Part shown: piece by piece, positions 3,756 to 58,231 of the stretch | How positions within the stretch are numbered: position 1 is the first letter of the stretch | How the letters are laid out: every line of letters starts with the position of its first letter | Assembly (NCBI GenBank): GCA_964353645.1 | Contig: CAYGWR010000001.1 | Span: 7,091 to 71,090, forward strand | Reading direction: 5' to 3' | Length of the DNA: 64,000 nucleotides | Origin: an uncultured Dehalococcoidia bacterium | GTDB taxonomy: Bacteria; Chloroflexota; Dehalococcoidia; SZUA-161 | Program-made: the position numbers and the translations under genes | Notes under the pieces: generated by a model | The model's database searches: none | Seen by the model: the letters and a program-made list of their open reading frames with translations, nothing else | What the model was told of the DNA's origin: nothing

Positions 3756-5030
3756 ATGCAATCCGCTACGAATGAGGTTGAAATTAAGGCTAAAGCGGCG
3801 AAAGCCGCCTCTAAGAAGCTTGCATATCTGAGCACTGCGGTCAAGAACAAGGCCTTGCTTGCTATCGCTGATGAGCTTATGGCCAAAGAGAAGGATATTC
3901 TGGCTGCCAACCGCCTGGACTATGCTGAGGGTGAGAAGGCAGGTATGAGCACCGCTATGCTTGACCGCTTGCTGCTGAACGCTGAGCGGATTAAGGGTAT
4001 AGCAGGCGATGTGCGCACTGTTGCTGCATTACCTGACCCGGTGGGGGAGACTTTCGAGATGCGTACCCTACCCAATGGACTTCAGGTTGGCAAAAAACGT
4101 GTTCCTCTGGGAGTGATCGGGGCTGTCTATGAGAGCCGACCCAATGTTACTGTAGATATCTCTGTCCTCTGTCTTAAGTCAGGGAATGCTATCATTCTGC
4201 GCGGCGGCAAGGAGGCTGTACACTCCAATTCGGTTCTGGCAAAAATAATACAGGGTGCCGCATATCGTGCCGGGGTTCCCGAGGGAGCGGTGCAGTGCAT
4301 CGAATCAACTGATCGCGCCCTGGTAGGACAAATGCTAAAAATGAGGGATTACATTGACTTGGTGATCCCTCGCGGTGGGGCTGATTTGATTAATTATGTG
4401 GCTCAAAATGCCGCCATGCCTGTGGTTACGGGGGGGATCGGCGTCTGTCACACTTACGTTGATAGGAGTGCAAACCTCGAAAAAGCAGTAGCCATCGTCT
4501 ATAATGCTAAGGTGCAGAGACCTACTGTCTGTAACGCATTGGATGCTATACTGGTTCACGCTGAGGTAGCGAAGAGCTACCTGCCGATGGTTGCCAAGGA
4601 ATTGGCCAGGGCCAATGTGGAGTTGCGCTGCGATGAGCGAGCTCTGAAAATCCTTAAACCTTTGACCTCGATCAAGGCGGTTCCCGCTACTGAGAAGGAC
4701 TGGGGCAAAGAGTTCCTGGCTCTGGTTGCCGCTGTAAAGGTGGTAGATTCCCTGGAGGAGGCATTAGAGCATATCGAGCGTTATGGCTCGGGGCATTCCG
4801 AGGCCATTGTGACCGAGGATTATTCAGCAGCGATGAAGTTCTTGGATGAGGTGGATGCAGCTTGCGTCTATGTCAATGCTAGTACTCGCTTCACAGATGG
4901 CGGCCAATTTGGGCTGGGTGCGGAGGTGGGAATAAGCACACAGAAGTTCCATGCCCGGGGCCCAATGGGCCTTAAGGAACTCACTACCTATAAATGGATA
5001 GTGCTGGGCAGCGGACAAGTTCGTCCATAA
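3756..5030 (+). CDS. proA: gamma-glutamyl phosphate reductase
   Basis: It is a 424-aa aldehyde-dehydrogenase-fold protein in the canonical proBA arrangement. The motif VCNALDAILVH contains the catalytic-Cys region. Confidence 0.9.
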   Translation: MQSATNEVEIKAKAAKAASKKLAYLSTAVKNKALLAIADELMAKEKDILAANRLDYAEGEKAGMSTAMLDRLLLNAERIKGIAGDVRTVAALPDPVGETFEMRTLPNGLQVGKKRVPLGVIGAVYESRPNVTVDISVLCLKSGNAIILRGGKEAVHSNSVLAKIIQGAAYRAGVPEGAVQCIESTDRALVGQMLKMRDYIDLVIPRGGADLINYVAQNAAMPVVTGGIGVCHTYVDRSANLEKAVAIVYNAKVQRPTVCNALDAILVHAEVAKSYLPMVAKELARANVELRCDERALKILKPLTSIKAVPATEKDWGKEFLALVAAVKVVDSLEEALEHIERYGSGHSEAIVTEDYSAAMKFLDEVDAACVYVNASTRFTDGGQFGLGAEVGISTQKFHARGPMGLKELTTYKWIVLGSGQVRP

Positions 5031-5036
5031 GGAGGA

Positions 5037-5342
5037 TTGATAATGGCAGAGTATCGGTTTGAAAGAGAATGCCGCACTGCACACTCTGAGGCTTATCTCA
5101 TAGTTGCTAGTGACGAGCAAGTGGGCAAAGTGGATATTCATTTCACCCCTTCGATAGTCTACGCTACCCTGTGTATCGGGGAAAATATGACCCAAGATGA
5201 AATTCAAGACCTTATTGATACCATTGACGAAGATTTGGTGATGTCGGCTGACGTTGCCCGCGATGATTTCATCGTGACTGTGTATCAGGGGCGAGAAGTC
5301 GGCGTCTTCAGCGATGAGGAGTTTGAGGAAGAGGAAGAATAA
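5037..5342 (+). CDS. hypothetical small acidic protein (poly-Glu C-terminus)
   Basis: The ORF follows proA with a 6-nt gap. I recognised no motifs. Coding status rests on position alone. Confidence 0.35.
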   Translation: MIMAEYRFERECRTAHSEAYLIVASDEQVGKVDIHFTPSIVYATLCIGENMTQDEIQDLIDTIDEDLVMSADVARDDFIVTVYQGREVGVFSDEEFEEEEE

Positions 5343-5355
5343 GTCCCAGGTATGG

Positions 5356-6294
5356 TCAAGCTCGCTTCTTGAGGATTAGAGAGCGAACAGCGCTCTCTAT
5401 ATCGACTGCGGTTAGCCGGTGTCTTTTTAATAGCTCCTCAGCTTTTCCGGATTTGGCATAAATATCGTTTATGGCGATGAAGGACATAGGAACTGGCCGC
5501 TGTTCAGCTACAATCTGAGCCACAGCGCTGCCCAGTCCGCCCCGCCGCAAGTGCTCCTCTGCAGTGACAATGGCACCTGTCTCCATAGCTGCCTTTACGA
5601 TAGCATCTCTGTCCAGTGGCTTGAGTGTGGACATACTAAGCACCCGGCAGTCGATTCCATCTAGCGCTAGGTTTTGGGCTGCTCCCAGGGCGGAAGCCAC
5701 CATAATTCCGGTGGCAATCACAGTGATGTCCTTCCCTTCTCTCAAAGTTGCTGCTTTCCCCAGAGTAAACTTGTAGTCCGACGCATAGACCAGAGGCGTT
5801 TTGGGACGGCTAAGCCTTATGTAGAATGGTCCGTAGGTTTGAGCTGCTACCTTCACGGCCTGGGCTGCTTCTGTGGCATCAGCAGGGACAACCACGGTGA
5901 AATTCGGGAGGGGGCAAATCAAAGCCAGGTCTTCGATGGCATGATGAGAGGTGCCATCTTCCCCCACAGTGATCCCGCTATGGGTCGTCACGATTTTAAC
6001 GTTCAAGCCAGGCTGTGCAACGCTCATTCGAATTTGGTCGAAGCAGCGTCCGGGAGCAAACACTGCAAAAGTGCTGACAAACACTGTCTTGCCTGAAGCA
6101 GCTAGGCCAGCAGCAATTCCTATCATATTCTGTTCAGCGATGCCGCAGTTGAAAAATCGCTGGGGGAACTCTTTGGCAAAGAGGCTGGTCATTGTAGACT
6201 TTGATAGATCAGCATCAAGGACAACTATGTCAGGGTTCTGTCTGCCCAACTCAACGAGGGTTTTGCCGTAGGCTTCCCTGGTGCTCTGCTCCAT
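5356..6294 (-). CDS. transketolase, C-terminal (pyrimidine-binding/TKC) subunit of a split transketolase
   Basis: A 312-aa protein with the pyrimidine-binding and C-terminal transketolase domains. It abuts the N-terminal subunit gene with a 2-nt gap. Confidence 0.85.
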   Translation of the reverse strand: MEQSTREAYGKTLVELGRQNPDIVVLDADLSKSTMTSLFAKEFPQRFFNCGIAEQNMIGIAAGLAASGKTVFVSTFAVFAPGRCFDQIRMSVAQPGLNVKIVTTHSGITVGEDGTSHHAIEDLALICPLPNFTVVVPADATEAAQAVKVAAQTYGPFYIRLSRPKTPLVYASDYKFTLGKAATLREGKDITVIATGIMVASALGAAQNLALDGIDCRVLSMSTLKPLDRDAIVKAAMETGAIVTAEEHLRRGGLGSAVAQIVAEQRPVPMSFIAINDIYAKSGKAEELLKRHRLTAVDIESAVRSLILKKRA

Positions 6295-51130: not shown

Positions 51131-51817
51131 TCAGCCCTGCCATAGCCTGTGAGCTTCCTCAAGGTCACCAGGAAAATCGATATCGGACCAGGGGCGGTCC
51201 GTGGCCAGCACATTCACAAATAGACCGCTGTCAACCAGGCCTTGGATGAGTTGAGGGAATGTGGTGCCCAAATTGGTATGGGCAATCTGTTCAAGCTGAC
51301 TAACTAGTGCCGGAATGGCATTTTTAGGGAACATGGCCACACCAATGAACTCTCCAAACGGCTTAGTCACGTCTTTACCTATAGCTTTTACAAGCCCGTT
51401 CTGCAGGACGACTTTCTCGGCCTCTCTGTCCATGCTTCTCGGATCCACGACTAAAAGGATATCATTCCCTCTACTCACAACCTCTTTAATCAGATTAGCT
51501 TCAAATAAGATGTCATCGTAGATCAATAAGAAGCCTGAACCCAACTCCTTTCTCACCAGCCAGAGATGCATTGCCACATTGCATATTTCGTAAAATGGAT
51601 TGAAAACACAAGACGCCCTTCCTGTGCAAAACTGCTCCACTTGGTCAGCCCCGAAACCAGTTATCACCAGTCGATCGCCGACACCGGCTTGTTCCAGTGC
51701 CTCAATCTGGCGGGCCAGGATAGCTTTGCCCCCCACCTCCAAGAGGCTGACTGGTTTGTGCTTGGTGAGTGGCAGCAACCGAGGACTTCTCGCTGCCGCA
51801 GTTATAATAGCCCTCAT
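51131..51817 (-). CDS. LicC/IPCT-like sugar-phosphate/phospho-alcohol nucleotidyltransferase paralog 1 (degenerate signature loop)
   Basis: MRAIITAAARSPRLLPLTKHKP aligns with the (G)xG(T/S)RL loop of the other two copies but reads AARSPRL. A shared C-terminal motif WSDIDFPGDLEEA is present. Confidence 0.65.
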   Translation of the reverse strand: MRAIITAAARSPRLLPLTKHKPVSLLEVGGKAILARQIEALEQAGVGDRLVITGFGADQVEQFCTGRASCVFNPFYEICNVAMHLWLVRKELGSGFLLIYDDILFEANLIKEVVSRGNDILLVVDPRSMDREAEKVVLQNGLVKAIGKDVTKPFGEFIGVAMFPKNAIPALVSQLEQIAHTNLGTTFPQLIQGLVDSGLFVNVLATDRPWSDIDFPGDLEEAHRLWQG

Positions 51818-51819
51818 TT

Positions 51820-52662
51820 TTAGCTTACTACTCCTGTGATAAGGCGCATGCGTATAAAAGCGCTTATACGATCAATGCAAATTACTGCGATGACCATTAC
51901 AAGTATAACAGTCAAGACTGCCGGGTTGTCAAAAAGGCGCGTGGCGTTGATGAGTTCAACTCCAATGCCGCCGGCTCCTACGAATCCTAATACGGTGGCA
52001 GCCCGGAAATTGTGTTCAAGGTAGTATAAAGTATAGCCAGCAAATAGAGGCCTTACCTGCGTCAGGATACCGTAGTAAATCGTCTGGATACGATTGGCAC
52101 CGGTTGAAGCTACGGCTGTGACTAGTTCGGCGTTTGTGGCTTCGATGGCCTCCGAAAAAAACCTACCGAGAGCGCCGATGTTGTGAACTGTCAGAGCTAG
52201 AACTCCAGGAAACGGACCAAGTCCCACCATAGAGACAAATACCAAGGCCCAGATTATCTCATTGATGCCTCGACAGAGGTCGAAGAATGTACGGGTAGCC
52301 TGGTAAACAGGCCAGTAAGGCATTACATTGCGGGCCGCTAGAAATGAAAGCGGCAGAGCTATTATAGCGCCAAACGTAACGCCCATTATAGCCATCTGGA
52401 TGGTCGTACCCAGCGGGCCCATAAGTCCACCGAGTATGCCCATATCCGGAGGGAACATGCGCTTTACATAGTCATACACGTAGGGCATGCCACGGAAGAA
52501 AGTAACTGGATTGGACTCAGTGCCCCTAATCGCCCATACATAAATGGCGACAATGGCCACCATCAAAGTGATATGGCGGAGCTTAGTTCCTAAATGCTCA
52601 ACAGGTATCTTTATCCTAGAATCCCCTCTTGCCATAGAGAATCCAATCCTCCGTCTCGCCAT
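51820..52662 (-). CDS. phnE: phosphonate-type ABC transporter permease
   Basis: A 280-aa permease with about six helices and the EAA-like loop (ALGRFFSEAIEAT). It is adjacent to the phnC and phnD homologs. Confidence 0.8.
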   Translation of the reverse strand: MARRRIGFSMARGDSRIKIPVEHLGTKLRHITLMVAIVAIYVWAIRGTESNPVTFFRGMPYVYDYVKRMFPPDMGILGGLMGPLGTTIQMAIMGVTFGAIIALPLSFLAARNVMPYWPVYQATRTFFDLCRGINEIIWALVFVSMVGLGPFPGVLALTVHNIGALGRFFSEAIEATNAELVTAVASTGANRIQTIYYGILTQVRPLFAGYTLYYLEHNFRAATVLGFVGAGGIGVELINATRLFDNPAVLTVILVMVIAVICIDRISAFIRMRLITGVVS

Positions 52663-53428
52663 AGATGTCTATTATATCCTTATCTGTAAGCTCAGCGGGG
52701 GTGTTATCGAAAACGATCTGCCCTTCCCTGATTCCAACCAAGCGAGTTGCATATGCTATGGCCATCTCGAGGAAGTGGAGGCTGGCCACTAGAGTCATGT
52801 CATGCTCCGTGCAGATATCCTTGATGAGGTCCATGATCTCCTTCATCAACTTTGGGTCCAAGCTCGACACTGGCTCGTCTGCAAGGAGGATACTGGCACG
52901 TTGCGCCATAGCCCGGGCTATCGCAACCCGCTGCTTTTGTCCACCACTCAAGTCGCTGACCCGTTTATTAGCGAACTTCTCAAGCCCTACTCTTCTTAGG
53001 CAGTCAGTAGCTGTAGCAATATCTTCTTCGCTGAATCGCCCAACTATACTCTTAAATGTGCCCACATACCCAAGCCTGCCCACCAATACGTTCTTTAGCG
53101 ATGTCGCCCCATCAATCAGGTTGAAATTCTGGGAGATCATTCCTATTTGGCGACGAACCAGCTCGACCTCTTTCGTGGGCAGACTGGTGATTTCTTTTCC
53201 ATCAATGAAGACCCTGCCTTTGGTGGGCTTGATGGAAAGGTTTGTACATCGGAGCAGTGTGGACTTGCCAGACCCACTTGAGCCCAGAATCACCACGCGC
53301 TCACCTTTGCTGACCTTCAAGTTGATATCCTTGAGGGCAGCCTCTGTCTTTTTCTTGCCATCGGAGCCGGAAGAGCCTGAGCGAGCCCTTATTGGATAGT
53401 TATGACTGAGTTCCTCTAACCTTATCAC
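52616..53428 (-). CDS. phnC: phosphonate-type ABC transporter ATP-binding protein
   Basis: Walker A GSSGSGKST, ABC signature LSGGQKQRVAIARA and Walker B ILLADEP. Confidence 0.85.
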   Translation of the reverse strand: MIRLEELSHNYPIRARSGSSGSDGKKKTEAALKDINLKVSKGERVVILGSSGSGKSTLLRCTNLSIKPTKGRVFIDGKEITSLPTKEVELVRRQIGMISQNFNLIDGATSLKNVLVGRLGYVGTFKSIVGRFSEEDIATATDCLRRVGLEKFANKRVSDLSGGQKQRVAIARAMAQRASILLADEPVSSLDPKLMKEIMDLIKDICTEHDMTLVASLHFLEMAIAYATRLVGIREGQIVFDNTPAELTDKDIIDIYGETEDWILYGKRGF

Positions 53429-53444
53429 CTCTTCTACCTCTTGT

Positions 53445-54326
53445 CTAAAGACCCAGTAAGTCGCGCGTTTCCCGAATGATATCGTAGTCGGAAGGTGTTA
53501 CCTTCACGTACTTCGCGATGTCTCCCCAGCCTTGAACTGTATAAATAATCTGCTGATCCATGTCAATAAGTGCTTGCTGTATTTTGTCCTTCAGATCCTG
53601 AGGAAGATCTCCTCTGACCACAATAGGCGAACCAGGTATCGGTGATGACTCGTAGATGATAACGTTAACATTTGGGTCAATCTGGCCCGCTTTGACCATG
53701 AGGTTGTACGAAGTATCGCTGTCAGCCCCAGCGTCTACGCTGCCGTTCTTAACGGCAAGCTCAACTGCATTGTGAGTGCCTGCGTAATACGAGGTTGAAA
53801 AGTCTTTCTGGATGTTGATTCCATTATCCAGCAGTATTTTCTTTGGTATCAAACACCCCGATGTAGAGGCTGGGTCTACGAATGCGAATGAGTGGCCCTT
53901 AAGATTATCAAGCGTTTTTATGCCCGAATCTGCTTTGGTGACGAAAACGGTCTTATAGGTCGAGAGGCCACTGTCCCTCCTCACACCGACTACTAGCGGC
54001 TCTGCGCCAGCTTCATCAGCCGCCAATACGTATGTGAAAGGCCCAAACCAAGCGATATCTATGTGCTTATACCGCATGGCCTCGACAGCAGCGGTGTAGT
54101 CGCTGGTTACTTGGAGTGTGACCTCCATATCGAGCTTCTGTGAGAGGTAATCAACCACCGGTTGATATTGGCGTAACATTGAAGCAGCGTCGTCTGCAGG
54201 AATAAGACCCCATCTAAGGACTTTTATCTCACCTTCTCCTTTTCCACCACAGCTCGTCCCACCCAGTGACATGAGAACCAATACAAGGGCAATCACCATA
54301 TACAATACTTTACTGGCCCGTTTCAT
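53445..54326 (-). CDS. phnD: phosphonate/phosphite-type ABC substrate-binding lipoprotein
   Basis: It has a signal peptide plus lipobox (GGTSC) and a PhnD/SsuA-like periplasmic binding fold (DIAWFGPFTYVLA, TSGCLIP). Confidence 0.8.
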   Translation of the reverse strand: MKRASKVLYMVIALVLVLMSLGGTSCGGKGEGEIKVLRWGLIPADDAASMLRQYQPVVDYLSQKLDMEVTLQVTSDYTAAVEAMRYKHIDIAWFGPFTYVLAADEAGAEPLVVGVRRDSGLSTYKTVFVTKADSGIKTLDNLKGHSFAFVDPASTSGCLIPKKILLDNGINIQKDFSTSYYAGTHNAVELAVKNGSVDAGADSDTSYNLMVKAGQIDPNVNVIIYESSPIPGSPIVVRGDLPQDLKDKIQQALIDMDQQIIYTVQGWGDIAKYVKVTPSDYDIIRETRDLLGL

Positions 54327-54437: not shown

Positions 54438-55196
54438 TTAGCTGCTATCGGCGAACTTTCTTCGCGCTTCCTCTAAGTCCTGAGGCGTGTCGATCTCTAT
54501 CCAACCTCCTTTGATATCAACAGTCGTAATTCTGCGCCCTGTGTCCATAAGTTCCTGTAGCATATCGCTTAGATAGGCGCCATCGAGTGATAGGGAGCGA
54601 TGAAAGGGGGCTGCTGGGCGTTCTTTGGCCACCCTGTGGTAGGCATCTCTCATCTCTTGGCTACCCACTCTGCTGAATTTGGCTAAACCTATGAACTCTC
54701 CATAGGCGTTATCAGGTTTAACCACCCCCTTACCTATTGCCGTCACTCTTCCATTATCGACATTGACGAGCTCAGCCTCCGAGACAGGATGCTTGTCGCG
54801 ACCCCTATAGCGCTTACTCCAGTCAATATCTACAGTGAGAACTGAGTCTGCATTCCCACCGTCAAGGAGCTTTGCGACAGTGTCGCTACTATAGATAATA
54901 TCGGAGTATGAGATGATGAGGTCATCATTCATCTCACTTTGGGCGCAGAACAACGATCTCAGTATATTGGTTTTTGCGTAATTAGGGTTCTCGTAGTATG
55001 TAATATCGGGATAGTTAATAAGGTTGCTGTGATAACCTCTTACCACTGCAATCCTGTTAATACCATTGGCCCTAAGAGCATCCAGGGCTCTCTGAAGGAT
55101 CGTCTTGCCGCCAATCTCAAGAAGACATTTTGGCTTTTCATTGGTGAGAGGCCTGAGGCGAGTGCTGGGACCGGCAGCAACTATGATAGCCTTCAT
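54438..55196 (-). CDS. LicC/IPCT-like cytidylyltransferase paralog 2 (canonical signature)
   Basis: MKAIIVAAGPSTRLRPLTNEKPKCLLEIGGK matches the nucleotidyltransferase G-x-G-(S/T)-R-L loop and K of the LicC/GlmU/RmlA fold. It has the C-terminal WIEIDTPQDLEEA. Confidence 0.75.
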   Translation of the reverse strand: MKAIIVAAGPSTRLRPLTNEKPKCLLEIGGKTILQRALDALRANGINRIAVVRGYHSNLINYPDITYYENPNYAKTNILRSLFCAQSEMNDDLIISYSDIIYSSDTVAKLLDGGNADSVLTVDIDWSKRYRGRDKHPVSEAELVNVDNGRVTAIGKGVVKPDNAYGEFIGLAKFSRVGSQEMRDAYHRVAKERPAAPFHRSLSLDGAYLSDMLQELMDTGRRITTVDIKGGWIEIDTPQDLEEARRKFADSS

Positions 55197-55217
55197 GGCA
55201 GCACCTCTAATTACTGA

Positions 55218-56264
55218 CTATTCAACCTTTAGTATCGAATGCAACCGTCTGCTTACCCTGTTGAAATCTTCCAAAGTGTCGATCTCTGCCCAACCACCGT
55301 GAATGTCGATGTGGCGTACCGGATATCCCTGGTCTATCAACTCCTGGATCAGGTCGGTGAAATATGCCTTGTCAGTCGAAGGCGATGTATGAAAGGCCTT
55401 TGACTGGTAATTCTGAATAGCCCAATTGTGGATTGTCTTTAGCGTTTCTGCACCGCTTTTTCTGAATTTTGCCAGCCCGATGAACTCACCATGGGCTTCA
55501 TTGGGTGGTACGAGGCCCTTTCCAATCTTTGTTATTCGGTCTCCTTCAACTCTAACTAATTCAGCATCGGAAACTGGATGCTGGTGGCGTTTGAGGTAGT
55601 GGTTTTGCCAATCGATGTCCACCACAAGCGAGATATCAGACTGGTCCCTGAGCAGCAATTCCAGCACTCCCTTAGTGTATAAAATGTCCGCATAACAGAA
55701 TATGAAATCGTCATCAATCTCGTCTTTGGCATAGAAGAAGGACTTCAAGATACCGGTATTTTTGTAGTCGCTGTTTTCGTAGTACCTGATACCGGGGTAA
55801 CTTATCTTGTCCCCCTGGTATCCCCGTACTAACACGATGTCATATATGCCGCATGCCCTAAGGTTTTCCAGTTGCCTGCTGAGGATGGTCTTATTCCCGA
55901 CCTCCAGAAGACACTCTGGCTTATCCTTGGTAAGGGGCAGCAGGAGGTTACTCTCCCCGGCAGCTACAATGATCGCTTTAATCTTCGGGAATATAGCCAG
56001 TGAGCTGAGGTCGAGCCCGCGCCGAAGGATTTCGTCCAAATAGGCATCCCAAACATCTTGTCCCCGACTCTGGATAATAGCTTCGGCGAGTCTGTCAGCT
56101 AGCTTATCGCCAAGATGATTTAGAATTTTGCGGTGTAACTGTCGGCCGAGTATGGTTGTTATTGTCTCGTCAGCGGACTTAGAAGTTCCATGGCGTAGAC
56201 GCTTGTGTCCCGCCAGACCCTGCGTGGTCTTGAAAATGCCCCCACAGATTTCGCATGTAAACAT
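55218..56264 (-). CDS. C2H2-type zinc finger fused to LicC/IPCT-like nucleotidyltransferase (paralog 3)
   Basis: The N-terminus CEICGGIFKTTQGLAGHKRLRH is a C2H2 finger. After a ~90-aa linker comes IKAIIVAAGESNLLLPLTKDKPECLLEVGNK and a C-terminal WAEIDTLEDF. It is ~45% identical to paralog 2. Confidence 0.7.
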   Translation of the reverse strand: MFTCEICGGIFKTTQGLAGHKRLRHGTSKSADETITTILGRQLHRKILNHLGDKLADRLAEAIIQSRGQDVWDAYLDEILRRGLDLSSLAIFPKIKAIIVAAGESNLLLPLTKDKPECLLEVGNKTILSRQLENLRACGIYDIVLVRGYQGDKISYPGIRYYENSDYKNTGILKSFFYAKDEIDDDFIFCYADILYTKGVLELLLRDQSDISLVVDIDWQNHYLKRHQHPVSDAELVRVEGDRITKIGKGLVPPNEAHGEFIGLAKFRKSGAETLKTIHNWAIQNYQSKAFHTSPSTDKAYFTDLIQELIDQGYPVRHIDIHGGWAEIDTLEDFNRVSRRLHSILKVE

Positions 56265-56639
56265 GAGTACTGAGTATAATACTGAGTTACTGGAAAAATG
56301 TCAATAGTCATTTACGTCTCTTGACAAATGGCGGTGGATAGTGTACCTAAAAAGCACCAGAAATACGGATACAAAGAGAGGTATTTAAGATGAAAAATTG
56401 TTTGAGTTTGGCAGCGATGTCTGTTTTGCCTTCCTTCTACTTGATGTCCCGCGATATGACAGATGCAGCTTTTAGTCACGGAAATGGAATTACGGCCCTT
56501 CAGCTAGCTATCGCTGTGCTGGTAGGAGCGCTTTATACAGCTAATCACTTCAAAGGCAGAATCAAGACGTTTTTTAAGTACTCGTCCTCTAAAAGTAGGA
56601 AGGGGTGAGGGAACGAAAGGCTAGCAGAATAGAATTTGT

Positions 56640-57251
56640 TTATCTATAAATGCTTCGTACATAGCGCACATACTTGATTACGTAGTACAGGGAAACCAGG
56701 AACGTAGCAAGGAGAACAATCTCTGCATAACGCCAGTCGATAATGTGTACCATAATCGTGGGATAAACAAAAGCAGCCAGAAGGTTTGTATCCAGGTGCG
56801 GTATCGTAAAACCGCCTTTCTTCTTTGAGATAAGCCCTACCACAAGAAGTGCAAAAGCTATCAATATCAATCCTGCTGCAAGCAGCCAGTAAGTTTCGAA
56901 CTTAATAGCGAGGCCAACTATTGCGGTATAAACCAGAACGAAATCGGCCAAACCGTCAAAGGTTGCTCCGTAGGTAGTGGTCTTTTTACTTCTCCTGGCA
57001 AAATATCCGTCAAGCAGGTCGGTTATCGCGGCGGCAGCGAAGAGGTAATAGGCAGCATCCGTTCTATTAGAGAATATGAGCCATACAACTACAGGGGCTA
57101 CAACAATCCTGGAGCCGGTAAGAACGTCTGCCAATCTCAAAGCTTTGATGGGCCTTCTCTTCGTTTTCTGAGCAATCTTTGATTCTAGACCCAGTGTTTC
57201 CGGGAACGTGATATAATACCTGACACAAGAAAGAATTGTTGAATCGAGCAT
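56640..57251 (-). CDS. CDP-alcohol phosphatidyltransferase family membrane protein
   Basis: The signature D(x)2DG(x)2AR(x)8G(x)3D(x)3D appears as DLLDGYFARRSKKTTTYGATFDGLADF. It has about six TM helices and is 203 aa. Confidence 0.75.
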   Translation of the reverse strand: MLDSTILSCVRYYITFPETLGLESKIAQKTKRRPIKALRLADVLTGSRIVVAPVVVWLIFSNRTDAAYYLFAAAAITDLLDGYFARRSKKTTTYGATFDGLADFVLVYTAIVGLAIKFETYWLLAAGLILIAFALLVVGLISKKKGGFTIPHLDTNLLAAFVYPTIMVHIIDWRYAEIVLLATFLVSLYYVIKYVRYVRSIYR

Positions 57252-57319
57252 CAGGTAGTTTACACGAGTATAGTGGCAATGTTTTCATGTTGTCAAGATG
57301 TGCAGCTAACGTATAGCAT

Positions 57320-58231
57320 GTGGAAAGCGATCTAGAAACGGATGGTAATATGAAAAAAGATAAACCAAGCGCTACCGCAGAGGCCAACGCTGCTTTCAGG
57401 GCTGCGGAGTTGCTGAGACCAAAGAACGAGCAAGTTTGTGAAGACCGGTTCGCAAGACGTTTCCTCGGCCTGAGATTCGGTATCATAGCCCGGAGCAGAT
57501 TACTTACCGGGATTGCGCGGTGGTACGTTGAGCGAATTATCCCCGGTGCTGCCAATAGCGTGGTGGCTCGAACCAGATATATCGATGATTACTTGAAGCA
57601 GTGTATTGACGCTGGCATAGAGCAACTGGTTATTCTGGGTGCCGGCTATGATTCCAGGGCCTACAGATTTGATGGACTTAAGGCAAGGGTCAGGGTCTTT
57701 GAAGTGGACCATCCCAACACACAGAGGGTTAAAATACAGAAAGTCAAAAAGATATTTGGCTCTCTTCCGAGCCACGTGGTCTATGTCGGGCTGGACCTCG
57801 ACGAAAAGAAGCTCGGGGAAGGGCTTCTGGAAAGCGGCTATGACAAGGGTAAGAAGACCCTTTTCATCTGGGAAGGCGTCACTGTGTACATTATCCCGGA
57901 GGCTGTGGATGAGACCCTGGCTTTTGTGGCTGAGAACTCAGGCAAAGGTAGCTGTATCATTTTCGACTACGCGTTTCAGTCGGCTTTCGATGCAGCTTCA
58001 GAGAGTGGTGACGCCAAGAAGTGGCGGGAAGCTTATGAGCGCAGAGGTGAGCCTCCTAAGTTTGCCTTGAAAGAAGACGCTGTCGGTGATTTCCTCTCTA
58101 AGAGAGGGTTTTATCAAGTGAAAAGTGTCAGCCTGGAGTCGATAAAGAAGACCTACTTCAAAGGGCCTAACGCGAAGAGAAATGTGACGAACCTGGGGGG
58201 GATTGTTCAGGCGACTGTGGTACGCAGGTAA
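57320..58231 (+). CDS. class I SAM-dependent methyltransferase, LCM/TcmP-like family
   Basis: QLVILGAGYDSRAYRF and the EGVTVYI motif are typical of the Ppm1/TcmP O-methyltransferase family. Confidence 0.7.
   Translation: MESDLETDGNMKKDKPSATAEANAAFRAAELLRPKNEQVCEDRFARRFLGLRFGIIARSRLLTGIARWYVERIIPGAANSVVARTRYIDDYLKQCIDAGIEQLVILGAGYDSRAYRFDGLKARVRVFEVDHPNTQRVKIQKVKKIFGSLPSHVVYVGLDLDEKKLGEGLLESGYDKGKKTLFIWEGVTVYIIPEAVDETLAFVAENSGKGSCIIFDYAFQSAFDAASESGDAKKWREAYERRGEPPKFALKEDAVGDFLSKRGFYQVKSVSLESIKKTYFKGPNAKRNVTNLGGIVQATVVRR

Follow-up and report, generated by a model that had tools for sequence, protein, structure and literature searches.

In a 64-kb stretch of DNA from an uncultured Dehalococcoidia bacterium (hereafter the window), we identified a gene whose product joins a classical C2H2 zinc finger, a long helix and a nucleotidyltransferase fold (the finger gene and finger protein; Table 1). 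This gene probably encodes a one-component transcriptional autoregulator that arose from a dead nucleotidyltransferase paralog, in which the finger and helix would bind an operator and the dead domain would sense a ligand. The presence of a C2H2 finger, the loss of catalytic residues and an unusually conserved DNA motif together make it most likely that the protein is no enzyme but a bacterial gene regulator of a new kind. DNA binding, zinc binding, the oligomeric state and the ligand are all predicted properties.

Table 1. Features of the finger gene and its surroundings (positions within the window)
Feature	Position	Strand	Remarks
Third nucleotidyltransferase paralog, NT3 (AAARSPRLLPLTKHKPVSLL)	51131..51817	(-)	PK lysine also absent
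PhnD-PhnC-PhnE-type ABC importer (PhnDCE)	51820..54326	(-)	Binding protein 53445-54326, ATPase 52616-53428, permease 51820-52662
Canonical short nucleotidyltransferase paralog, NT2 (AAGPSTRLRPLTNEKPKCLL)	54438..55196	(-)	Strong Shine-Dalgarno GAGGTG at 55202-55207
Finger gene, open reading frame	55218-56264	minus	348 aa; finger, helix and nucleotidyltransferase fold
Nucleotidyltransferase-fold domain, residues 95-348	55218..55982	(-)	Leu107 (55944-55946) for Arg15 and Glu117 (55914-55916) for Lys25 (PntC numbering)
Conserved helical region, residues 26-94	55983..56189	(-)	Core KLADRLAEAI...HG.E; from conservation and model
Classical C2H2 zinc finger, residues 1-25	56190..56264	(-)	Cys4, Cys7, His20, His25; recognition helix TTQGLAGH; mRNA lacks a Shine-Dalgarno sequence
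Operator-like element CCAGTAACTCAGTATTATACTCAGTACTC	56265..56293	(-)	Holds -10 hexamer TATTAT (56276-56281); ends at ATG
-35 hexamer TTGACA of the finger-gene promoter	56299..56304	(-)	17-nt spacer to TATTAT
Small hydrophobic ORF, 72 aa, divergent	56390..56608	(+)	Shares intergenic region with finger gene
CDP-alcohol phosphatidyltransferase	56640..57251	(-)	PF01066, E 2.8e-19; conserved upstream neighbour, own promoter

The N-terminus of the finger protein, MFTCEICGGIFKTTQGLAGHKRLRH, matches the pattern F-x-C-x2-C-x3-F-x5-L-x2-H-x4-H (numbered F2-x-C4-x2-C7-x3-F11-x5-L17-x2-H20-x4-H25) and has the classical C-x2-4-C-x12-H-x3-5-H spacing, including the hydrophobic F and L; six-frame translation of the window gave no other stop-free C2H2 pattern. 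AlphaFold predicted a beta-beta-alpha fold for residues 1-25 (strands 2-3 and 10-11, helix 14-25; pLDDT 82-91). Most of the top 50 Foldseek matches of the finger were C2H2 fingers, DNA-bound ones included, superposing at 0.5-1.9 A over ~25 residues, although such a small domain does not reach significant E-values. Pfam scores of this single finger were sub-threshold (zf-C2H2_4, 15.7 bits vs 27; zf-C2H2_6, 13.4 vs 25; E 0.026). A profile of the N-terminal family matched multi-finger zf-C2H2_6/zf-C2H2 proteins, with E-values down to 1e-28, as well as solved C2H2 chains, and the two-finger relative P0273 exceeded the zf-C2H2_6 threshold (34.1 bits).

A search for the same fusion in other genomes found the complete architecture in ~83 ortholog clusters from Dehalococcoidia/Chloroflexota MAGs; the loci compared are MAG or metagenome contigs that are related to each other and are not independent samples. 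No full-length ortholog in the alignment, even at 47% identity, had lost any of the four ligands. Across 24 N-termini, K12, Q15, G16, L17, G19 and R22 were invariant along with the ligands, whereas four-fold sites within the finger codons were only 54% identical. The finger is genuine, translated and conserved. Its conservation and profile matches rule out a chance pattern. A downstream start that would drop the finger was also ruled out: the internal Met raised as an alternative start by the sequence-only reading does not exist, the protein having a single Met, and apart from this Met the only start-type codon ahead of the enzyme domain is a TTG at codon 76. Orthologs of 315 aa that seem to lack the finger are gene-calling errors, as seen in one locus (L154) where finger and upstream element are intact. 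Thus, the C2H2 finger of that reading was borne out by pattern fit, predicted fold, superposition, profile matches and ligand conservation.

Classical C2H2 fingers have been described as almost exclusively eukaryotic (PMC3541406). Other zinc-finger proteins occur in prokaryotes and their viruses, such as Ros/MucR, whose DNA-binding finger has a larger, non-classical fold unlike that of its eukaryotic counterpart (PMC9779718), and the archaeal-virus protein AFV1p06, whose DNA-binding finger lacks the fourth histidine (PMC3541406). However, neither is fused to an enzyme fold, and the finger described here fits the full classical consensus. A parallel is found in plants. The QALGGH fingers of the EPF/ZPT family recognise AGT(G)/(C)ACT cores, preferably spaced ~10 bp apart (PMC3268024). 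They share with our finger the C-x2-C-x3-F-x5-L-x2-H spacing and the Q, L, G and H at equal helix positions (QGLAGH vs QALGGH), and QALGG was the most frequent helix among the top profile matches of the N-terminus. By analogy, the two may also share DNA specificity, although our protein is bacterial and has a single finger per chain, which is joined to an enzyme fold.

The helical linker proposed to follow the finger was confirmed by AlphaFold: residues 26-94 are helical, and residues 30-81 were predicted as a single long helix, which scored pLDDT about 88-95 in a model of its own (88-95 for residues 41-80). Three stand-alone proteins (P0245, P0160 and P0269) have the same finger with a comparable segment behind it. 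The finger and its adjoining long helix are a conserved module. A single finger contacts only ~3-4 bp, and specific binding therefore needs oligomerisation, for which the helix is a plausible dimerisation device. The engineered Zif23-GCN4 protein dimerises via its helix and reads a palindromic site. In this design (PDB 1llm), too, a long helix directly follows a finger, and the N-terminal profile aligns with it over residues 3-47; on the other hand, it is artificial and has two fingers, and dimerisation of the natural helix is only inferred. LicC and one PntC, relatives of the enzyme-fold domain, have been reported to be monomeric (PMC6697681).

The remainder of the protein had been taken for a complete LicC-like catalytic domain. 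The fold is indeed complete. Pfam gave matches above threshold to PF12804 (33.9 bits) and PF00483 (30.9 bits) (NTP_transf_3 and NTP_transferase), AlphaFold modelled most of residues 95-348 with pLDDT >90, and Foldseek recovered the whole nucleotidyltransferase alpha/beta fold (E 5.6e-17 to PntC 6pd1 and 1.3e-14 to 1jyk). These PntC/LicC structures are the best matches in both structure and sequence; they carry no finger or helical extension. The catalytic residues, however, are lost. In place of the signature GXG(T/S)R-X4-8-PK, the finger protein has AAGESNL(107)LLPLTKDKPE(117)CLL, and HMMER alignments to 1jyk and 6pd1 placed Leu107 and Glu117 where PntC/LicC have intact Arg15 and Lys25. The lysine is replaced throughout the finger class (0/83 representatives retain it, vs 31 of the 33 sequences without the extension, whose two exceptions are truncated finger-class fragments). 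Residues of the Arg15/Lys25 type stabilise the CTP phosphates and the transition state. In PntC, alanine at Arg15, Lys25 or Lys153 reduces activity to <10% (PMC6697681).

In spite of this loss, the domain is under strong purifying selection: many pocket residues are invariant among orthologs, and in the same loci it is as conserved as NT2 (67-75% vs 61-68% identity). No NCBIfam equivalog model reached its cut-off against the finger protein.

One explanation is that the protein is still an active cytidylyltransferase for which the finger serves as a tether or localisation device. The complete and confidently modelled fold, the invariant pocket, the catalytic arginine kept in 60/83 finger-class representatives and the name given by NCBI to relatives ('phosphocholine cytidylyltransferase family protein') would agree with it. 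In addition, Lys115 stands two residues ahead of the usual lysine position and might partly rescue catalysis; but canonical paralogs have an equivalent lysine (EKPK, DKPK), and hence it is not a compensating change. A short nucleotidyltransferase paralog adjoins the finger gene in 27/27 intact loci. This paralog, NT2, is 50% identical to the enzyme domain of the finger protein and is fully canonical in every locus checked. Because the lysine is gone in 83/83 representatives, the arginine is gone here as well and NT2 has kept the two in 18/18 loci, the domain is unlikely to activate small molecules as a working enzyme, and we regard the tethered-enzyme explanation as a whole as very unlikely; judged from these residues, NT2 is presumably the active enzyme. 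The finger protein has the look of a dead paralog turned regulator rather than that of an enzyme that is tethered or moonlights. Of the interpretation in the sequence-only reading, a nucleic-acid-binding or regulatory role is thus the part best supported and, with a finger that is genuine, translated and conserved, the part that holds, whereas activation of small molecules does not survive the loss of the PK lysine. Its view of the protein as the third nucleotidyltransferase paralog of the cluster was correct, as the finger protein, NT2 and NT3 make three.

A dead paralog might also act on its neighbour. In GMPPA (PMC11228364) and GalF, a nucleotidyltransferase paralog lacking catalysis stands beside an active enzyme and is thought to sense the activated product; GMPPA binds GDP-mannose, interacts with GMPPB and regulates it (PMC11228364). 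Here, too, the paralog has lost its catalytic residues, has kept its fold and pocket and has been retained beside the canonical NT2 in all 27 intact loci, and the GalF and eIF2B families are among the weak matches. The finger protein may then be a non-catalytic subunit that binds the activated product and complexes with NT2 for feedback, with the finger used for protein contacts or having no DNA role and another factor occupying the upstream element. We consider this rather unlikely as the main function, though it is compatible with autoregulation. GMPPA acts allosterically within a protein complex and has no DNA-binding domain, and a subunit of this type would leave unexplained a retained DNA-binding-type finger with an invariant recognition helix, an enzyme-free finger-plus-helix module beside recombinases and the similar DNA repeats before all these genes.

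The strongest evidence lies outside the reading frame on which the sequence-only reading was based, in the operator-like element immediately upstream of it. The element CCAGTAACTCAGTATTATACTCAGTACTC contains six A(C/G)T triplets and the near-palindrome CTSAGTAT-W-ATACTSAG, with AGT-N9-AGT and ACT-N9-ACT arrangements that resemble the AGT/ACT cores ~10 bp apart of the plant Q-type fingers. Its 29-bp consensus across loci is CCAGTaACTCAGTATwATACTCAGyACTC. In the 31 different upstream sequences compared, the majority of positions between -27 and -2 did not vary, and pairwise identity was 81% for -33..-1, vs 35% for -70..-41 and the 54% noted above for four-fold finger-codon sites. Within the window, the element had a single match at <=3 mismatches, before the finger gene. 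It was present in 18/18 distinct protein-selected loci with an intact gene, where it lay directly upstream of the finger gene only, and was absent from a finger-less locus (L156). In comparison, the heptamer CTSAGTA alone is not enriched in the window (17 matches vs 14.8 expected). A metagenome-wide scan with an 18-mer hit at least 120 loci; among the matches listed, about 20 were finger-gene promoters, and the remainder comprised unrelated matches by chance and elements of other kinds, for example a PadR-associated palindrome in L095. The scan does not suffice to define a regulon, and loci selected by motif were not counted as independent support for the association of motif and gene.

Part of this conservation is ordinary promoter constraint, as the element runs over the -10 hexamer and into the start region. 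Alternatively, the element may be no more than a strong promoter of the housekeeping type, or an unrelated regulator may bind there, with the finger playing a purely structural part. The near-consensus hexamers within or at the element (TTGACA and TATTAT, 11/12 consensus matches; TTGAC found in nearly all orthologous loci) and the look-alike palindrome that serves PadR-type loci on unrelated soil contigs are consistent with this. We nevertheless consider it improbable. The spacer and the positions after the -10 hexamer were invariant to the same degree as the hexamers, other promoters in the same loci, that of the CDP-alcohol phosphotransferase among them, were not conserved, and in one subgroup the -35 box had moved by 3 nt while the element downstream had not. 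Moreover, the motif accompanies the finger module in three additional gene contexts.

Binding of the finger to RNA, for example the gene's own short-leader mRNA, or to single-stranded nucleic acid would mean control of translation or stability and not of transcription. RNA binding is known for some C2H2 fingers, the finger-gene mRNA has at most a very short leader, and relatives gave weak matches to the dsRNA-binding model zf-C2H2_jaz. However, most of the element lies upstream of any plausible transcription start, and in two loci the element keeps to the promoter and not to the ATG (L002, with a 25-nt leader inserted, and likewise L024). An RNA hairpin formed by the palindrome was ruled out, being too weak and mostly untranscribed, and the repeats before stand-alone genes extend 100-270 bp upstream. 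We regard this explanation as highly unlikely. The element is a candidate operator at a putative target promoter, conserved, unique in the window, located over the -10 hexamer and recurring in three further contexts.

These further contexts are the genes for the three stand-alone proteins with the same finger, just 5' of which CAGTGCTSAG(T/C)A-type repeats were found. One locus (L158) had five CTSAGTA heptamers in 300 bp vs two in the other 4.6 kb, a count reached by 0/5000 shuffles. Another (L157) had a 19-bp palindrome, GTCAGTGCT-C-AGCACTGAC, and was marginal by the strict heptamer (266/5000 shuffles), and the third (L159) had several motif copies upstream. The upstream region of P0257 (L160) showed only a vague likeness and was left out of the count. 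In 1.06 Mb of fetched loci, 46 of the 48 matches to CAGT-N1-2-CTSAG(T/C)A were just upstream of a finger gene; the loosened motifs RCTSAGY and CAGT-N-CTSAG were set after the stand-alone loci had been seen. Genes with the same finger and other C-termini (a two-finger WEKVLRLSGFRW family and coiled-coil proteins) had no upstream motif, but most of them lie inside operons and hence its absence says little.

Two of the three stand-alone finger genes are divergent from, and adjoin, large serine recombinases, a typical position for mobile-element repressors. Relatives of the N-terminal module were found neither in IMG/VR viral contigs or plasmids nor, with P0160 as query, in GenBank phages. When the two stand-alone proteins served as queries in a homology search, they recovered nothing but themselves.

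Downstream of the finger gene, the string continues with NT2 and the PhnDCE importer, whose binding protein matched the Pfam Phosphonate-bd family (E 1e-71). An MFS transporter takes the place of PhnDCE in other loci, even where the finger protein is 99% identical. NT3 was restricted to loci with PhnDCE (L017 could not be scored, as it ends inside PhnE) and had Val at the lysine position in 8/8 loci. Upstream, the CDP-alcohol phosphatidyltransferase presumably uses the CMP/CDP-activated product, and the genomic setting resembles that of PntC/LicC, in which cell-surface glycan or lipid loci include a CDP-alcohol phosphotransferase along with an importer of the phosphonate type. The 72-aa ORF in the intergenic region of the finger gene occupied the same position in 14/28 loci examined (35-83% identity by tblastn) and had no match in a Pfam search. 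An Rfam search of the window returned one tRNA and nothing else. The gene content suggests that uncultured Dehalococcoidia take up a phosph(on)o head group, activate it with CTP and use it to decorate their surface or lipids.

Enzyme-derived one-component regulators, or 'trigger enzymes', include NadR (an HTH domain fused to NMN adenylyltransferase), BirA, PutA and ROK-family repressors. As in these proteins, a DNA-binding-type module and a ligand-binding-type domain lie on one chain of the finger protein, a one-component layout as far as architecture goes, and the enzyme fold would sense a metabolite of its own pathway while the candidate operator covers the gene's own promoter. The differences are that trigger enzymes use HTH or RHH domains instead of a classical eukaryote-type C2H2 finger with a long helix, and that the putative sensor here is an apparently dead sugar/phospho-head-group nucleotidyltransferase fold of the GXGTR...PK type.

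The autoregulator may work as follows. The finger protein would oligomerise via its helix and/or its enzyme-fold domain, and the fingers would bind the AGT/ACT cores of the element, which spans both the -10 hexamer and the transcription start, and thereby exclude RNA polymerase. A small molecule would still bind in the dead active site, most likely the CMP/CDP-activated product that the neighbouring enzyme makes or, failing that, the phosph(on)o substrate of this enzyme, and such binding would alter operator occupancy; the direction of regulation and the identity of the ligand are guesses. Regulation would cover the whole string, that is, the regulator, the active cytidylyltransferase NT2, the PhnDCE or MFS importer and NT3. 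The operon would take up and CTP-activate a phosph(on)o head group and supply the CDP-alcohol phosphotransferase that decorates a lipid or glycan. A leaderless regulator gene followed by the strong ribosome-binding site of NT2 would fit a scarce regulator and an abundant enzyme.

In a wider sense, we see about an even chance that Dehalococcoidia and their relatives possess a natural family of modules, each made of a C2H2 finger similar to the plant Q type and a dimerising helix, which read AGT/ACT sites of the CAGT-R-CTSAG(T/C)A type and serve as mobile-element repressors. In one lineage, such a module would have been fused to a dead cytidylyltransferase paralog, giving rise to a previously unrecognised one-component regulator that autoregulates an operon for salvage and CTP-activation of phosph(on)o head groups.

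If the autoregulator is real, bacteria would have a transcription factor whose finger is truly beta-beta-alpha, whose cognate operator is predicted and whose sensor domain is a reused, dead nucleotidyltransferase. Public annotation, which currently names these proteins phosphocholine cytidylyltransferase, choline kinase or PEP phosphomutase, would be corrected, together with the mis-called starts of the 315-aa versions. It would also offer a simple system of one finger and a defined site that bears on the origin of Q-type fingers.

The window derives from a Dehalococcoidia bacterium. Residues 1-25 of the finger protein (MFTCEICGGIFKTTQGLAGHKRLRH) match the full classical C2H2 consensus F-x-C-x2-C-x3-F-x5-L-x2-H-x4-H, and six-frame translation of the 64-kb window revealed no other stop-free C2H2 pattern. 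The sequence-only reading had considered an alternative start at an internal Met. Such a start does not exist, because the ATG, which is the earliest start codon following the in-frame stop, provides the single Met of the protein, and ahead of the enzyme domain the sole other start-type codon is a TTG (codon 76). A database search for the same fusion in other genomes identified ~90 clusters of full-length relatives (340-357 aa), all from Dehalococcoidia/Chloroflexota MAGs or metagenomes; at the closest genome locus (L009, MAG CYF170214_bin_349) the N-terminus is 92% identical to that of the window protein. The Cys/His residues, whose conservation in orthologs had been in question, are kept in all sequences having the N-terminus (C4, C7, H20 and H25; 35-sequence alignment, down to 47% identity). 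Ten positions (C4, C7, K12, Q15, G16, L17, G19, H20, R22 and H25) are invariant among 24 N-termini while four-fold degenerate sites of the finger codons are only 54% identical, so that selection operates at the protein level. These comparisons indicate that the finger is translated and conserved. The 315-aa orthologs that seemed finger-less are gene-calling errors: L154 has an intact finger and an ATG 99 nt upstream of the called start. One decayed copy of the finger gene was observed (L020 5960-6840; protein P0121, 174 aa), with ATA in place of ATG, an upstream GTG as start, an internal deletion in the enzyme-fold domain and a degenerate upstream element (TCTCAGTAATTTACTCAGTG).

AlphaFold modelled residues 1-25 as beta-beta-alpha (pLDDT 82-91), superposing on DNA-bound C2H2 fingers at 0.5-1.9 A, followed by a single long helix (approximately residues 30-81) that was of low confidence in the full-length model and reached pLDDT 88-95 with the N-terminus modelled alone. 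On the window's single finger alone the Pfam models scored below threshold. Of 1.84 billion proteins, 1454 were matched at E<=1e-3 by a profile of the N-terminal 90 residues, the majority being multi-finger proteins (zf-C2H2_6 or zf-C2H2 by Pfam), with solved C2H2 chains also among the matches. Consensus, model and profile matches agree with the original assignment of a C2H2 finger, whose predicted fold is the classical one.

The second half of that assignment, a "complete LicC-like catalytic domain", held for the fold only. Residues 95-348 adopt a confident nucleotidyltransferase fold, with PntC as best match (6pd1, E 5.6e-17), followed by inositol-phosphate cytidylyltransferases and then LicC. 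In the phosphonate cytidylyltransferase PntC, Arg15 is part of the lining of the pyrophosphate pocket and Lys25 is in contact with the alpha-phosphate, and changing Arg15, Lys25 or Lys153 to Ala leaves <10% activity (PMC6697681). We used the family signature GXG(T/S)R-X4-8-PK for the catalytic check; the corresponding region of the window protein is AAGESNLLLPLTKDKPECLL, in which Leu107 pairs with the signature Arg and Glu117 with the signature Lys in HMMER alignments to LicC and PntC. None of 83 finger-class representatives has Lys at the latter position (Ala 33, Glu 24, Asp 10, Val 7, Gly 4, others 5), and 60 keep the Arg; relatives without the N-terminal extension have Lys in 31/33 and Arg in 32/33, the exceptions being truncated finger-class fragments. 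The adjacent paralog NT2 keeps both residues, here as well as in 18/18 further loci. Because the signature residues are replaced, an intact NT2 adjoins and Lys never occurs in the 83 representatives, the description as complete is wrong where it matters. Between loci, identity to the window proteins is 67-75% for the enzyme-fold domain versus 61-68% for NT2; being as conserved as NT2, the domain of this pseudo-enzyme is functional, though probably not as a catalyst. The third paralog, NT3, which was seen only where the PhnDCE importer is present, may be a second pseudo-enzyme, as it has Val in place of the PK lysine (TPVSLL), both here and in 8/8 orthologous loci.

Coordinates of the finger-gene region and of loci with stand-alone relatives
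Feature	Position	Strand	Remarks
NT3	51131-51817	-	nucleotidyltransferase paralog, 31% identical to finger protein's enzyme domain
PhnDCE region	51820-54326		compared with L061 and L119
NT2	54438-55196		immediately downstream of finger gene; 50% identical to finger protein's enzyme domain
Finger gene	55218-56264	-	ORF encoding 348 aa
Finger-gene promoter	56304-56276		TTGACA, 17-nt spacer, TATTAT
Small hydrophobic 72-aa ORF	56390-56608	+	divergent from finger gene
CDP-alcohol phosphotransferase gene	56640-57251	-	near-consensus promoter at 57267-57296
LCM-family (leucine carboxyl methyltransferase-like) gene	57320-58231	+	
Stand-alone finger-plus-helix loci	L157 2876-5408; L158 1-3604		serine recombinase adjoining

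A short canonical paralog adjoins the finger gene in 27/27 intact loci, downstream in 26 and upstream in one (L002). This pair is followed either by PhnD-PhnC-PhnE and NT3 or by an MFS transporter. In L061 and L119 the finger protein is 99% identical to that of the window, yet MFS stands in place of PhnDCE and NT3; very close strains differ by a swap of the transporter module. Usual upstream neighbours are a CDP-alcohol phosphatidyltransferase, a small divergent 70-aa ORF and an LCM-family methyltransferase, and several loci sit inside glycan-synthesis clusters with NeuB and glycosyltransferases. The gene string looks like a candidate pathway in which a phosph(on)o head group would be imported, CTP-activated by NT2 and transferred by the CDP-alcohol phosphotransferase, in line with the scheme put forward for pathways of PntC and LicC (PMC6697681). 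In most loci the LCM-family gene is conserved next to the CDP-alcohol phosphotransferase gene, in divergent orientation. The window's 72-aa ORF, without any Pfam match, has a counterpart at the same position in 14/28 loci examined (35-83% identity, tblastn), and the TTGTCAAG box beside it recurs in several loci, not all.

The key new observation is a conserved cis element preceding the finger gene. Its ATG lies 11 nt past TATTAT with no Shine-Dalgarno between, in contrast to NT2, which has GAGGTG 5 nt ahead of its ATG. Orthologous loci gave 31 distinct upstream sequences, across which positions -29 to -1 form a nearly invariant block (CCAGTaACTCAGTATwATACTCAGyACTC); pairwise identity is 81% at -33..-1 versus 35% at -70..-41. 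Within the block, spacer and post-(-10) positions are as invariant as the hexamers; in one subgroup the -35 box has moved 3 nt with the block position unchanged, and in L002 and L024, whose finger genes have a 25-nt leader that includes a ribosome-binding site, the block remains at the promoter. No comparable conservation between loci was found at the neighbouring CDP-alcohol phosphotransferase promoter. The 18-mer core occurs once in the window with <=3 mismatches allowed and, in protein-selected loci, only directly ahead of the finger gene; the block is absent from the related finger-less locus L156. The CDP-alcohol phosphotransferase promoter itself consists of TTGACA, an 18-nt spacer and TATACT, and since its ATG lies only 15 nt past the -10 hexamer without a Shine-Dalgarno, leaders in this organism seem often to be short or lacking.

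The block is composed of six A(C/G)T triplets (AGT-a-ACT-c-AGT-ATwAT-ACT-c-AGy-ACT) and contains a near-palindrome, CTSAGTAT-W-ATACTSAG, with perfectly palindromic versions in some loci. The cores recognised by plant QALGGH fingers are AGT(G)/(C)ACT, read in either orientation and preferably ~10 bp apart (PMC3268024), to which AGT-N9-AGT and ACT-N9-ACT in the element can be compared. The recognition helix QGLAGH shares Q, L, G and H with QALGGH at equal positions, and QALGG is the commonest helix among fingers of the 150 best profile matches. A plant-like DNA specificity of this finger is a lead by analogy only. The palindrome ACTCAGTATAATACTGAG turns up again in high-GC soil contigs; at the sole soil locus examined (L095 4817-4834), a PadR-like regulator (ORF 4859-5557) and an ABC-transporter ATPase lie downstream. 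It is an unrelated look-alike operator and cautions that the motif should not be interpreted in isolation.

Small prokaryotic proteins sharing the K/R-T-x-QGLAGH finger were also among the profile matches. Three stand-alone relatives (P0245, P0160 and P0269) additionally have a helix resembling KLADRLAEAI...HG.E; P0160 is a Dehalococcoidia MAG protein by its NCBI name. The P0245 and P0160 genes are divergent from adjoining large serine recombinases, as repressor genes of mobile elements typically are; such proteins are candidate repressors of integrative elements. CAGTGCTSAG-type repeat arrays lie between finger gene and recombinase in L157 and L158. Five CAGTGCTGAGTA-like 12-mers and the run GTACTCAGTACTCAGTGCTCAG lie within 110 bp upstream of the P0160 gene. 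The heptamer CTSAGTA, defined in advance from the fusion loci, occurs five times in the upstream 300 bp versus twice in the other 4.6 kb, a count reached in 0/5000 shuffles; at the P0245 locus the strict heptamer is marginal only (266/5000), and a perfect 19-bp palindrome (GTCAGTGCT-C-AGCACTGAC) with related copies lies upstream. P0269 is preceded by CAGTGCTGAG, TACTCAGCACTG, GTGCTGAGTAACTG and CCAGTACTCGAGTGCTCGCAGTACTG. In 1.06 Mb of fetched loci, 46/48 matches to CAGT-N1-2-CTSAG(T/C)A lie shortly ahead of a gene for this finger, which is corroboration and not proof, the pattern having been refined post hoc and many of the loci picked via motif or protein.

Proteins of ~150 aa with two QGL(A/S)GH fingers and a conserved C-terminus (WEKVLRLSGFRW) are encoded in L006-L008 and L025-L029 (e.g. 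L006 1780-2253); in L006-L008 the gene comes after a 288-aa ORF near transposase genes, and the two look like a mobile two-gene cassette. The same finger (KTAQGLAGH) is also present in ~190-aa archaeal proteins (L028 1546-2151 from a Thermoplasmata MAG, P0220 and P0227), which additionally have another finger of a different kind and a C-terminal domain that is conserved. Chloroflexota and archaea have this finger type in common.

The most economical reading of the observed architecture, signature-residue loss, conserved pairing and recurrent cis element, reached by computation alone and in our view reasonably probable, is that the finger protein is a one-component autoregulator. We infer that the protein binds DNA and oligomerises, and likewise infer its ligand and the direction in which it regulates. 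The finger-plus-helix would be a DNA-binding unit, also occurring alone in mobile elements, that in this lineage would have been fused to a duplicate of the pathway cytidylyltransferase; the duplicate would have lost its catalytic residues and now act as a ligand-sensing domain. Binding across the -10 hexamer and start site would repress the operon. Loss of the pyrophosphate-holding and transition-state residues with the rest of the pocket kept would favour binding of the CMP/CDP-activated product over catalysis, much as GMPPA binds GDP-mannose rather than catalysing (PMC11228364). The finger protein may also have a GMPPA-like allosteric role toward NT2, which is compatible with autoregulation and could coexist with it.

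No mention of the QGLAGH motif or of this fusion was found in the literature searched, and the public names of the finger proteins are those of an enzyme. Enzyme-derived sensor domains joined to DNA-binding domains are a known design, of which the autoregulator proposed here would be a variant; what is new, from computation only, is the use of a classical C2H2 finger as the putative DNA-binding module of a bacterium, joined to a nucleotidyltransferase pseudo-enzyme that would be the sensor.
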